A DNA stretch of 64,000 nucleotides from Flavobacteriales bacterium. Its GTDB lineage: Bacteria; Bacteroidota; Bacteroidia; Flavobacteriales_F; PHOS-HE28. The translations under genes were made by a program, and so were the position numbers. Positions within the stretch are counted from its first letter, which is position 1. Every line of letters begins with the position of its first letter. The notes beneath the pieces are model-generated. The model had not been told where the DNA came from. It searched no databases and saw nothing but the letters and a program-made list of their open reading frames with translations. This document shows positions 1 through 64,000 of this stretch, in pieces. Location of the stretch: NCBI GenBank assembly GCA_047601855.1, contig JASGIM010000001.1, positions 2,820-66,819 of the forward strand, in the 5' to 3' direction.

Positions 1-1935
1 GCGCTCATGAAGCCCAGCTCCTTGATGTCGTCGAGGAACTTGGCGGCTTTCGCCGTGCCGCATTCCTTCATCACGCGGCCGATGATGTCGCGCAGCGACT
101 TCTTCGTCAGCAGTTCGTTGATGAAGCCCACTTCATCGGGCACCACTTCGTTGAAGAGCACGCGGCCCACGGTGGTCTCGATCAGTTGGCTCTTGCCGTC
201 CAGGCCGGTCCAGCGCACCTTGATCCAGGCGTGCAGGTCCACCTTGTTCTCGTTGTAGGCGATGCCCACCTCCTCAGGGCTGTAGAACACGCGGCCTTCG
301 CCACGCATCGTGCGGCCCGGTTCGCTCTTGCGGCCCTTGGTGATGTAGTACAGGCCGAGCACCATGTCCTGGCTGGGCACCGCGATGGGCGCGCCGTTGG
401 CCGGGTTCAACACGTTGTGGCTGGCCAGCATCAGCAGCTGCGCTTCCAGGATGGCGGCGTGGCCCAGGGGCACGTGCACGGCCATCTGGTCACCGTCGAA
501 GTCGGCGTTGAACGCGGTGGTCACCAGCGGGTGCAGCTGGATGGCCTTGCCTTCAATCAGCTTCGGCTGGAAGGCCTGGATGCCGAGGCGGTGCAGCGTC
601 GGTGCGCGGTTCAGCAGCACCGGGTGGCTCTTCAGCACGTTCTCCAGGATGTCCCAGATCACCGGCTCCTTCTTGTCCACGATCTTCTTGGCGGACTTCA
701 CCGTTTTCACGATGCCCCGCTCGATGAGCTTGCGGATGATGAAGGGCTTGAAGAGCTCGGCCGCCATGTCCTTCGGCAGGCCGCATTCGTGCAGTTTCAG
801 GTCGGGACCCACAACGATCACGGAACGTGCGCTGTAGTCCACGCGCTTACCGAGCAGGTTCTGGCGGAAGCGGCCCTGCTTGCCCTTGAGCGAGTCGCTC
901 AGGGATTTCAGCGGGCGGTTGCTCTCGCTCTTCACGGCGCTGCTCTTGCGGCTGTTGTCGAAGAGGCTGTCCACGGCCTCCTGCAGCATGCGCTTCTCGT
1001 TCCGCAGGATCACTTCCGGCGCCTTGATCTCCATCAGGCGCTTCAGGCGGTTGTTGCGGATGATGACGCGGCGGTAGAGGTCGTTCAGGTCGCTCGTGGC
1101 GAAACGGCCACCGTCCAGGGGAACGAGCGGACGCAGTTCGGGCGGGATCGACCGGCACCACCTTCACGATCATCCACTCGGGGCGGTTCTCGCGGCGGCT
1201 GTTGGCGTCGCGGAAGGCTTCCACCACGTTGAGGCGCTTCAGCGCTTCGTTCTTGCGCTGCTGGCTCGTTTCGGTGTTGGCCTTGTGGCGCAGGTCGTAG
1301 CTGAGGGTGTCCAGGTCCAGGCGGCGCAGCAGGTCATAGAGGGCGTCGGCGCCCATCTTCGCCAGGAACTTGTTCGGGTCGGCGTCGTCCAGGTACTGGT
1401 TGTCCTTGCCGACGGTCTCCAGGATGTCCAGGTACTCTTCTTCCGTGAGGAAGTCGAGGTAGTTCAGCGGAGCACCCTCCTTGTTCGTCGCGCCACCGGC
1501 GTTGATCACCACGTACCGTTCGTAGTAGATGATCTGGTCCAGCTTCTTGGTGGGCAGGCCCAGCAGGTAGCCGATCTTGTTCGGCAGGCTGCGGAAGTAC
1601 CAGATGTGCGCCACCGGCACGGTGAGCTGGATGTGGCCCATGCGCTCGCGGCGCACCTTCTTCTCGGTCACCTCCACGCCGCAACGGTCGCACACGATGC
1701 CCTTGTAGCGGATGCGCTTGTACTTACCGCAGTGGCATTCGAAGTCCTTCACGGGACCGAAAATGCGCTCGCAGAACAGGCCGTCGCGCTCGGGCTTGTA
1801 GGTGCGGTAGTTGATCGTTTCCGGCTTGATCACCTCCCCGTGGCTGCGCTCCAGGATCTGCTCCGGGCTGGCCAGGCTGATGACGATCTTGTCGAATTGG
1901 CTACTGAGCTTCACCTCCTTCTTGATCATGGTCAT
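1..1935 (-). CDS. rpoC: DNA-directed RNA polymerase subunit beta-prime, N-terminal ~640 codons; the gene continues beyond the window start. Apparent 1-nt insertion near 1150.
   Basis: ORF 847-1935 begins MTMIKKEVK...[18 protein letters not shown]. After position ~1150 the protein continues in another frame ([38 protein letters not shown] ... [15 protein letters not shown]), which is the beta-prime catalytic motif. The frame change is at GGGATCGACC (1141-1155). Expected position directly downstream of rpoB. Confidence 0.9.
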
Positions 1936-1947
1936 GGCTGCAGAGGT

Positions 1948-61795: not shown

Positions 61796-63982
61796 TTGCC
61801 CATGCGCCGTGCCGCCCTTGTGCTGTCGTTCCTCCTGGCCGTTTGCGCCGTTGACGCCCAGGAAAAGCTGAAGGACCTCTCCCTGAAGGACGCCATCACG
61901 AAAGCCTATTCCGAGTATGCGCCCGAGCAATTGAAGGGGCTGGCCTGGATTCCGGGAACGGAGGAATTCTCCTACGTGAAGGACGACGTACTGATGCGTG
62001 GAGCGGTGTCCAAAAAGAGCGATACGCAGCTGGTGACCCTGGCGCAGTTGAACGCGGCGCTGCCCAAAGGCACGGCATCGCTCCGGTACTTCCCGCCCAT
62101 CGACTGGATCGGCCCGGACGCCTTCCAGTTCGACCTCGGCGAACGCATCATGCGCTACGACCTGAAGCAAGGCGCCTGCACCACGGTGCTCAACGTCGAT
62201 GCGGAAGCCGAGCGCCAGGACCTGGACGACAGCAAGCAGCGCATCGCCTACACGATAGGCGAAGACCTGTACGTCACGCTCTCCGACAAGGAGCCGGCCG
62301 TGCGCGTGACCAACGACGGCGCGGACGGCATCGTGAACGGCCGTAGCGTACACCGCGAGGAATACGGCATCACCAAAGGCACGTTCTGGAGCCCCGGCGG
62401 CAACCGCCTCGCCTTCTACCGCATGGACGAAACGATGGTGACACCCTACCAATTGGAGGACATCACCACCAAGCCCAGCACGTTCAAGAAGATCCGTTAC
62501 CCTATGGCCGGGCAGGCTAGCCACCACGTCACGCTGGGCGTGTTCGACGCGCGCACGAAGAGGACGGTCTTCCTGAAGACCACCGGCGCGCCGGACGACT
62601 ACCTCACCAACATCAGCTGGGAGCCGACGGAGAAGTACGTGTTCGTCATCCACCTTGACCGCGCCACCGACCACCTGCGCGTGGTACAATACGATGCCGC
62701 CACCGGCGAGCCGGTGAAGACCCTGATCGAGGAGGACGACAAGAAGTGGCTGGAGCCGCAGCATCCCCTCACCTTCCTGAAGCGCGCGCCCACGCAGTTC
62801 ATCTACTGGAGCCAGAAGGATGGATACTGCCACCTCTACCTGCACGACACGGGGAAAGGCCTGCTGCGCCAGCTCACCAAGGGCAGCTGGGTGGTGAAGC
62901 GCATCACCGGCATGGACGCCAAGGAGACGGCGATCTACGTGGAGGGTACGGGCATCATCGACCAGAAGGATCCGAAGGGCGCCATGGAAACGCACCTGTA
63001 CCGCGTGGAGCTCGCGACCGGCCGGACCACGCGCCTGACCCAGGCGCCCGGCACGCACCACGGCGAACTTTCCGGGAGCGGCCGCTTCCTGATGGACACC
63101 TGGAGCAGCATCGCCGTACCCGGCCGCACCGAAGTGCTGGACGCCGCGAAGGGCAACACCTTGAAGATGGTGAAGGACAGCCGCGATCCATTGGCTGGCA
63201 TGAACGTGGGTACCATCGAACTCGTGCAGATCCCCGGCGAGAACGGCGACGTATTGAACGCCCGGTTGGTCAAGCCGCGCGGCTTCGATGCGTCGAAGAA
63301 ATATCCCGTGCTGGTGTACCTCTACAACGGCCCGCACGTGCGCCTGGTCAGCAACGCGTTCCTCGGCGGCGCCAACCTGTGGATGCTGCATGCCGCGCAA
63401 CGCGGCTACCTCGTGTTCACGGTGGATGGGCACGGCAGCGAGGACCGCGGGCGTGACTTCGAGCAGGTGATCCACCGCCAGCTGGGCACCGTGGAAATGA
63501 AGGACCAGCTGCACGGCGTGGAGTACCTCAAGAGCCTCCCCTACGTGGACAGCGGCCGCATGGCGGTGCATGGCTGGAGCTTCGGCGGCTTCATGACCAC
63601 GTCGCTGATGCTGAAGGCGCCCGGCACCTTCCAGGTGGGCGTGGCCGGCGGTCCGGTGATGGACTGGAGCATGTACGAGGTGATGTACACCGAACGCTAC
63701 ATGGACACGCCGGAGGAGAACCCCGACGGCTATGCCAACGCGCTGCTCATCGACAAGACGCAGAACCTGCAAGGCAGCTTCCTGCTGATCCACGACAACA
63801 TGGACGACACCGTGCTGCCCGAGCACAGCATGCGCTTCCTGAAAAGCTGCGTGGACAAGAGCATGCAGCTGGATTTCTTCATGTACCCCGGCCACCCCCA
63901 CAACGTGCGCGGCAAGGACCGTGTACACCTGATGACCAAGGTGCTGGGCTACATCGATACCCACCTCGGCGTGGGGCATTGA
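61796..63982 (+). CDS. S9-family serine peptidase (dipeptidyl-peptidase IV-like beta-propeller plus prolyl-oligopeptidase catalytic domain)
   Basis: Signal peptide MPMRRAALVLSFLLAVCAVDAQ. Catalytic serine motif HGWSFGGFMT. ...LLIHDNMDDTV... and ...HPHNV... complete the triad region. Confidence 0.85.
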   Translation: MPMRRAALVLSFLLAVCAVDAQEKLKDLSLKDAITKAYSEYAPEQLKGLAWIPGTEEFSYVKDDVLMRGAVSKKSDTQLVTLAQLNAALPKGTASLRYFPPIDWIGPDAFQFDLGERIMRYDLKQGACTTVLNVDAEAERQDLDDSKQRIAYTIGEDLYVTLSDKEPAVRVTNDGADGIVNGRSVHREEYGITKGTFWSPGGNRLAFYRMDETMVTPYQLEDITTKPSTFKKIRYPMAGQASHHVTLGVFDARTKRTVFLKTTGAPDDYLTNISWEPTEKYVFVIHLDRATDHLRVVQYDAATGEPVKTLIEEDDKKWLEPQHPLTFLKRAPTQFIYWSQKDGYCHLYLHDTGKGLLRQLTKGSWVVKRITGMDAKETAIYVEGTGIIDQKDPKGAMETHLYRVELATGRTTRLTQAPGTHHGELSGSGRFLMDTWSSIAVPGRTEVLDAAKGNTLKMVKDSRDPLAGMNVGTIELVQIPGENGDVLNARLVKPRGFDASKKYPVLVYLYNGPHVRLVSNAFLGGANLWMLHAAQRGYLVFTVDGHGSEDRGRDFEQVIHRQLGTVEMKDQLHGVEYLKSLPYVDSGRMAVHGWSFGGFMTTSLMLKAPGTFQVGVAGGPVMDWSMYEVMYTERYMDTPEENPDGYANALLIDKTQNLQGSFLLIHDNMDDTVLPEHSMRFLKSCVDKSMQLDFFMYPGHPHNVRGKDRVHLMTKVLGYIDTHLGVGH

Positions 63983-64000
63983 CCCCCCGCTCAGGGCAAG

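Follow-up and report, generated by a model that had tools for sequence, protein, structure and literature searches.

Assemblies built from nanopore reads retain systematic errors at modified sequence motifs, GATC included, with most copies of these motifs being called correctly (PMC11610603, PMC12392509, PMC10687267). Errors within GATC have been reported for R10.4.1 assemblies of Klebsiella pneumoniae and Salmonella enterica (PMC12392509), and strand-specific mismatches at methylated motifs have been described in connection with Hammerhead (PMC11610603) and Modpolish (PMC10687267). The present work concerns a window of 64,000 nucleotides, which is the whole stretch of DNA that was analysed (positions 2,820 to 66,819 of the forward strand of contig JASGIM010000001.1, assembly GCA_047601855.1), from a Flavobacteriales bacterium. 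Ten genes of the window, among them rpoC, rpoB and prfA, are interrupted by eleven single-base indels, of which ten are insertions and one is a deletion. Ten of the eleven breaks lie in GATC or touch it, and in three of them a duplicated A or T destroys the site. Like the errors that base modification causes in Oxford Nanopore Technologies (ONT) assemblies, these changes are tied to one short motif, survive consensus building, affect a minority of the motif copies, depend on the flanking bases and occur in an assembly that is otherwise accurate. The ONT errors are chiefly substitutions, whereas all changes detected here are one-nucleotide indels. Indirect evidence gives good support to the reading of the eleven breaks as single-base, motif-specific consensus or sequencing errors and not as decay, in which case all ten genes would be intact.

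Frame breaks and GATC sites

The reading frames of the window were followed using a hidden Markov model (HMM) built on the G+C content of the three codon positions only, with no reference used. The model places frame switches inside genes at 1147/8, 5404/5, 11881/2, about 12.75–12.8 kb, 14917/8, about 19005, 26732/3, 38579/80 and 43959/60. The HMM scan of the window, which is blind to short compensated indel pairs, found no further in-gene frame switches, and the remaining switches are gene boundaries. The break in prfA, located ten codons from the start, can be seen by translation only. Alignment with homologues confirms the breaks in rpoC, rpoB, xerC, rfbD, prfA, the OmpA-family gene and the methyltransferase gene; the breaks in the carboxy-terminal domains of the PKD proteins and the break in the adhesin were placed by domain and repeat logic. 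A preliminary description of this DNA had listed eleven gene-disrupting single-base indels. All eleven were found again by the HMM, translation and homologue alignments, and the HMM scan reproduced that list without additions.

Eleven one-base edits, ten deletions and one insertion, are sufficient to obtain one uninterrupted open reading frame (ORF) of the expected size in each of the ten genes, and no second lesion was found in any of these genes once each break had been edited. According to the HMM, codon bias runs on across the breaks. Downstream of them, the G+C content of third codon positions (GC3) stays at about 0.8–0.9 and homology is fully kept. The relatives are in frame at the breaks of rpoB, rpoC, xerC, rfbD, prfA, the OmpA-family gene and the methyltransferase gene, that is, in all cases where a homologue was found. 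Where two different repairs would encode the same protein, the codon usage backs the repair that contains GATC (ATC 564 to ATT 26, GTG 760 to GTC 98).

The window contains 461 GATC sites, one per 139 nt, and 454 are expected under a Markov model (observed/expected 1.02). GATC is thus not counter-selected in the window, as is the case in genomes with an orphan methylase, this being a weak sign of methylation and not a specific one. A break was counted as a hit if GATC was present in or next to its position or was restored by deletion of the base, with an ambiguity of ±1 nt; a random position satisfies this with p = 0.076. With this value, the probability of at least ten hits among eleven breaks is 6e-11, and that of at least nine is 4e-9; a very loose definition (p = 0.15) still gives 6e-8. 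When all 3- to 6-mers near the repaired junctions were scanned without bias, GATC came out as the top k-mer (9 of 11 within ±5 nt, p = 1e-10). Errors in the length of C or G runs affect two of the 24 runs that include an end base of GATC and one of the 1824 other runs (Fisher p = 5e-4). Errors touch about 2% of the roughly 464 GATC sites, approximately 100-fold over the rate elsewhere; away from GATC, one indel falls in roughly 55 kb of coding sequence. The clustering at GATC, which had been noted in the preliminary description, therefore holds, and its count of nine in eleven rises to ten after two breaks were re-placed by means of homologues. Longer or other motifs (GATCGA, TCGA and RGATCASC) were considered and rejected, since many error-free copies of them are present and GATC remains the best k-mer.

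The ten GATC-linked breaks take three forms. In rpoC, xerC, both PKD genes and the adhesin gene, a G is inserted directly after GATC on the plus strand, and the inferred true context is RGATCA(C/G)C in all five (class (a)). In prfA, the OmpA-family gene and the methyltransferase gene, the central A or T of GATC is doubled, producing GAATC or GATTC (class (b)). In rpoB and rfbD, a C or G run that shares its end base with GATC has the wrong length (class (c)).

Position of the breaks in individual genes

Sequences from several relatives were used for the placement of the breaks. The nearest genome found is L001 (GenBank JADJOG010000004.1, contig name tig00013640), which we take, from its name, to be a long-read metagenome-assembled genome (MAG) from activated sludge. 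Its RpoB is 90% identical to that of the window and the nucleotide identity is 83%; it represents a different species. L106 (JGI 3300056850 Ga0558718_07567) and L107 (3300056623 Ga0558116_07492) are related metagenome contigs, and they are the closest relatives that share the Gln-Ile context at the rpoB break. L108 and L109 are Logan contigs assembled from public sequencing runs. In the sequences below, square brackets enclose an extra base.

The rpoC gene, on the minus strand, carries an extra base at 1146–1150 (GATC[G]A on the plus strand, GT[C]GATC on the minus strand). Its frame up to the break reads ...MIVKVVPV, and the tblastn high-scoring segment pairs (HSPs) of L001 RpoC join at 1144–1148; the window has GTCGATC where L001 and L106 have GT-GAT(C/A). 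In rpoB, also on the minus strand, one base is missing at 5403–5409: CAGATCCC^TACATG should be CAGATCCCCTACATG. The break is a contraction, C4>C3, of the run whose first base is the C of GATC (GGG at 5404–5406 of the plus strand should be GGGG). The IPYMTP motif is intact and in frame in 25 relatives, and L106 and L107, which have the same Gln-Ile context, read GATCCCCTAC, i.e., GATCCCC. The contraction of GATCCCC to GATCCC is common to the window and L001. The occurrence of the same contraction in another species is what a systematic, context-driven error predicts.

The rpoB gene of L001 is likewise frame-broken, through three indels clustered within 80 nt (9930–10015): an extra G in GAG[G]CAC, the GATCCCC>GATCCC contraction and a C6>C5 contraction. 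As a replicate for GATC-linked errors, L001 was set aside, as these three clustered indels, two of them within 5 nt of GATC, are supportive and too few. L106 and L107 are noisy long-read assemblies with an indel every 150–200 nt and no motif preference, and in them tuf, rplK, rplA and rpoB are each broken into several called genes. They were rejected as replicates because of this noise and are usable only as majority-vote references. Many of the 'partial' RpoB entries of the protein collection stem from indel-rich assemblies of this kind.

The gene of the XerC-type recombinase (minus strand) has an extra base at 11880–11884 (GATC[G]A on the plus strand), and the true reading would be DRL-ILELLYGTGMR. 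The Pfam SAM-like domain is in one frame and the integrase catalytic domain in another, the HSPs of L087 join at 11882–11884, and the repaired product gives a gapless alignment with five homologues. In the gene of the RfbD/RmlD-like reductase (minus strand), the extra base lies within 19032–19047, in a three-base run that includes an end base of GATC. The Pfam RmlD match ends early, at position 255 of 287, and the HSPs join at 19040–19045. The most likely placement is GG[G]ATC at 19042–19047 of the plus strand, giving LDPSGIRPIT; the alternative, GATCC[C] at 19032–19037, gives LDPERIRPIT. Six homologues read L(D/P/S)(T/P)(S/T/G) here, and the repair to DPS is favoured because S stands third in four of the six. 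In prfA, which encodes release factor 1 (RF1) on the minus strand, the extra base is inside GATC at 25335–25339 (GATTC on the plus strand, GCGA[A]TCCAC on the minus strand). According to three homologues, GCGAATCCAC must be GCGATCCAC, and the repaired amino terminus (MSDLLSKLSALHDRR...) aligns with these three.

Three of the breaks are found in two genes of proteins with PKD domains and a CHU_C carboxy-terminal sorting domain of type B of the type IX secretion system (T9SS), both on the minus strand. In protein 1, the extra base (12816–12820, GATC[G]A on the plus strand) is within the sorting domain, the match to CHU_C halts at profile position 40 of 86, and the +1 frame encodes an intact second half; the true reading would be IYNRWGQL-IFSTRALAQGW...GYVTLVR, followed by the stop. 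In protein 2, the extra base at 14679–14683 lies in a 17-mer identical to that of the paralogue (CAGCTCGATCTTCAGCA on the minus strand), and the CHU_C domain runs on in the +1 frame to GHITLVR and the stop. The two paralogous T9SS carboxy-terminal domains thus show an identical defect in an identical 17-mer. The second break of protein 2 is an extra base in a G run, GACGG[G]CAC (CCC on the plus strand), at 14924–14926. It is the only break away from GATC, the nearest site being 92 nt off; the frames read INGDG before it and TSLIATFPAELGSYPVVLVVT after it, and the HMM switch is at 14917/8.

The T9SS adhesin gene, on the plus strand, has an extra base at 43953–43957 (GATC[G]A), and the true reading would be LTCPGR-ITLAPQVSGGS. 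Its internal repeats, C(P/A)G..(I/V).L...GG, limit the break to AGGATCG; the HMM changes frame at 43959/60. After repair, the ORF spans 1028 aa and has a CHU_C domain at its end. In total, four genes in the regions 12640–16405 and 40836–45634 encode PKD domains together with a CHU_C (T9SS type-B) sorting domain at the carboxy terminus, and two of these genes stand in tandem. One of the four (40836–42176) comes after the gene of an ECF-type sigma-70 factor (40187–40828). The adhesin gene is immediately followed by an ORF at 45880–47151 (plus strand, 423 aa) that lacks any Pfam match, and the region 45600–47335 was mostly scored by the frame model as non-coding in composition.

In the remaining two genes, homologues led to positions other than those of the preliminary description. 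The gene of the TPR/PD40/OmpA-family protein (minus strand) was thought to be broken at a CC at 26727, and this break and that at 14924–14926 were considered to be the two lying away from GATC. The latter keeps its position. The CC placement implies I-L-D-A, which is found in none of the four homologues (ISDA, ISDA, ITDA and IPMD), whereas I-S/T-D-A is found in three of the four. The break is best read as an extra base converting GATC to GAATC at 26731–26735 on the plus strand (GA[A]TC), with TTGAT[T]CTCGG on the minus strand. The true reading would be EPLISDAEIKKM, and the repair to I-S/T-D-A gives TTGATCTCGG. Two tblastn alignments join at 26730–26732, and the HMM switch is at 26732/3.

The gene of a class I S-adenosylmethionine (SAM)-dependent small-molecule methyltransferase (plus strand) had been described as broken at GGATCC, 38565–38570. 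The break lies 12 nt further downstream, as an extra T in GATC at 38577–38581 (GA[T]TC, in the context TGGAT[T]CGAG), with a true reading of DPFW-IEPNRIIERGY. This position agrees with the HMM switch at 38579/80. All 12 homologues read DPFWI(E/G)PN, with F-W-I-x-P invariant; removal of one base of TGGATTCGAG (GATTC, 38577–38581) gives a protein of exactly 246 aa, as in more than 30 homologues; and the Logan contigs L108 and L109 both read TTCTGGATCGA (TGGATCGA) at this site. The truncated product (window 38101–38601, plus strand) is deposited as a 163-aa 'class I SAM-dependent methyltransferase' (P0073), while the true protein would have 246 aa. The broken enzyme was considered as a possible GATC methylase and rejected, since it belongs to the small-molecule Methyltransf_11 family.

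Origin of the breaks

The preliminary description had attributed the breaks to motif-specific errors in intact genes and not to gene decay. This attribution is well supported, if indirectly, by the one-base repairs, end-to-end homology, codon bias, relatives in frame, the common defect of the two paralogues and the contraction shared with L001. In its homopolymer length spectrum, the window equals its metagenome relatives, whereas runs of at least four bases are depleted in L001. The agreement of the spectra means that the general indel accuracy is high and that the GATC errors are the dominant residual class. Such a pattern of residual errors fits a modern long-read-only assembly. As in the case of long-read homopolymer errors, all eleven changes are one-base length errors, and six of them can be expressed as altered run lengths: C4>C3 in rpoB, G2>G3 in rfbD, GG>GGG in PKD protein 2, and A>AA or T>TT in prfA, the OmpA-family gene and the methyltransferase gene. 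In contrast to homopolymer errors, the changes described here are mostly insertions in runs of one or two bases and are concentrated approximately 100-fold on GATC, while long runs elsewhere are correct.

We assign a probability of about 0.8 to the joint reading, according to which the breaks are consensus errors of a long-read metagenome assembly, the genes are intact, and the signal deviation at GATC is most likely caused by base modification. The true sequence at the error sites would then be GGATCACC, GCGATCCAC, TGGATCGAG, TTGATCTCGG, GATCCCCTAC and so on. The sequencing signal at GATC would depart from the expectation of the basecaller or polisher, the most likely reason being that GATC bears a base modification in this bacterium, and in some flanking contexts this departure may push the consensus to a wrong length. 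N6-methyladenine (m6A) of the Dam or the DpnII/MboI type would be the commonest candidate; 5-methylcytosine (m5C) or N4-methylcytosine (m4C) at GATC would look alike. On the strength of the error pattern, Dam-type GATC methylation is plausible. The locus resembles systems with Dam-type N6-adenine methylation in the motif itself and in that GATC is not avoided. The locus would fit m5C or m4C at GATC, a GATC restriction–modification system or no methylation at all as well. An error linked to a motif indicates only that the signal differs from the expectation of the caller; it gives neither the identity of the modification nor whether the modified or the unmodified state is responsible.

A number of observations weigh against the joint reading. 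The ONT errors linked to modification are chiefly substitutions, C>T and G>A (PMC11610603, PMC10687267, PMC12392509), and our literature search for indel-type errors at GATC found reports of the substitution type only. No substitution anomalies were found at the invariant columns of RpoB and RpoC among 73–74 relatives: in these two proteins, which the check covers, columns with at least 97% invariance show six deviations in all, none of them within a GATC-like context. Insertions outnumber deletions 10:1. RGATCASC has twelve further error-free occurrences, so the context is not deterministic. A DNA methyltransferase was not found among the roughly 50 ORFs of the window scanned against Pfam. 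In contig coordinates, the ten GATC-linked errors all have a purine 5' of GATC on the plus strand and fall into eight RGATCR, two RGATCY and zero YGATCN, and the background of the window is 105 RGATCR to 115 YGATCY (p = 0.003 for the asymmetry); all five GATC[G]A events have one orientation, and the orientation of the errors tracks the contig rather than the strand of the gene. Mirror-image errors would be expected if a symmetric modification of the duplex were read from both strands; such a model does not predict the asymmetry, which suggests a property of the read set or of a polisher lacking reverse-complement symmetry. Finally, six of the eight window proteins found in the protein collection searched are the sole members of their 90% clusters, and therefore this collection contains no second assembly of the species.

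The main alternative is an artefact without methylation, in which the basecaller or polisher has a k-mer bias at GATC contexts; for example, a model trained largely on Dam-methylated DNA may miscall unmethylated GATC, or a polisher may lack reverse-complement symmetry. We regard this as rather unlikely, although it has several points in its favour. Only about 2% of the GATC sites are hit, with narrow shared flanks (RGATCASC five times), and the strong strand asymmetry in contig coordinates points to software or the read set rather than to symmetric duplex modification. The indels found here, set against the substitutions documented for modification (PMC11610603, PMC10687267), and the lack of a DNA methyltransferase among the window ORFs scanned also speak for it. 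However, motif-restricted residual errors in accurate long-read assemblies have usually been traced to modification (PMC11610603, PMC12392509). Moreover, the three error classes meet on one 4-mer, whereas an artefact of k-mers alone should track longer, specific contexts, and twelve identical 8-mer contexts carry no error. A library made by cutting at GATC (Hi-C with DpnII or Sau3AI), whose GATC/GATC junctions might leave a partial GATCGA at a true GATCANC during polishing, is a further possibility, which we rejected as very improbable. It could account for the five class (a) sites, whose inferred true sequence is GATCA[CG]C and, with the inserted G, matches GATCGATC at two more positions, but the GAATC/GATTC duplications and the run-length errors are left unexplained by it. 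The mirror events T[C]GATC that it predicts on the plus strand are not seen (0/14 versus 5/17), and 14 GSTGATCY and 12 RGATCASC sites are untouched. In addition, junction reads are normally soft-clipped, and GATCGATC occurs only twice in the window, in neither case at a frame break.

Real mutations, whether from decay of the genes or from mutagenesis directed at GATC in the population sampled, appear very improbable. The deposited sequence does have the indels, one of them common to L001, and the frameshifted and truncated genes resemble genuine pseudogenes in annotation, e.g., the 163-aa stub. Nevertheless, rpoB, rpoC and prfA are indispensable. Unlike genuine pseudogenes, the genes of the window include essential ones, have a single lesion per break placed in a motif-specific manner and show no decay downstream: after the edits, no second lesion is left in the ten genes, homology and GC3 are maintained, and the relatives are in frame where homologues were found. 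A 100-fold excess of consensus-level indels at one tetramer also has no known mutational basis. A mutational process targeted to GATC on one strand, with nicking of the MutH or restriction type and error-prone repair, would also explain the strand asymmetry and the insertion bias; it would imply a non-viable or hypermutating dominant population, and we consider it just as hard to accept. The restoration of the frames by programmed ribosomal frameshifting or transcriptional slippage has a negligible probability. Nothing specific speaks for it, except that the rpoB sequence C-CCT-ACA-TGA, a site common to L001, would let tRNA-Pro re-pair in the -1 frame. Ten unrelated genes would need such a mechanism, in both the +1 and -1 directions; a conserved slippery heptamer or stimulator is absent, in the closest relatives one frame encodes each of these proteins, and L001 has two more indels beside the shared one.

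Gene surroundings and significance of the errors

The window has a G+C content of 63%. The conserved cluster rpoC-rpoB-rplL-rplJ-rplA-rplK-nusG-secE-tuf is located on the minus strand, followed downstream by housekeeping and T9SS genes. Exact protein look-ups showed that the GenBank proteins of the window extend from MFT3883858 (L7/L12) through MFT3883903 (MurB) and belong to a 93,203-bp contig of a MAG.

The fused SecDF gene at 31989–35640 (minus strand) encodes a full-length OmpA-family domain (Pfam 1–98 of 98, E = 3.6e-21) between SecD_1st and SecDF_P1_head. These two domains are 314 aa apart in the window and 170 aa apart in L108, which has no OmpA match. The periplasmic P1 domain appears to have gained a lineage-specific insert of approximately 145 aa that carries an OmpA-like domain.

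The value of the present findings is practical, concerning curation and methods, and not biological; the artefact is an ordinary one. A public MAG holds frame-broken rpoB, rpoC and prfA and seven more broken genes, and the protein databases already contain at least one truncated product. Pseudogene counts, completeness estimates and protein clustering based on this genome are distorted as a result. The signature, one inserted base within or beside GATC in any of three recurring forms, can be screened for and repaired from the sequence alone. These errors depart from the published substitution-type ones in being indels, in favouring insertions 10:1 and in their strand asymmetry, features that may be of interest to those who train basecallers and polishers. 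For the organism itself, the signature is a hint of GATC modification in this Flavobacteriales lineage.

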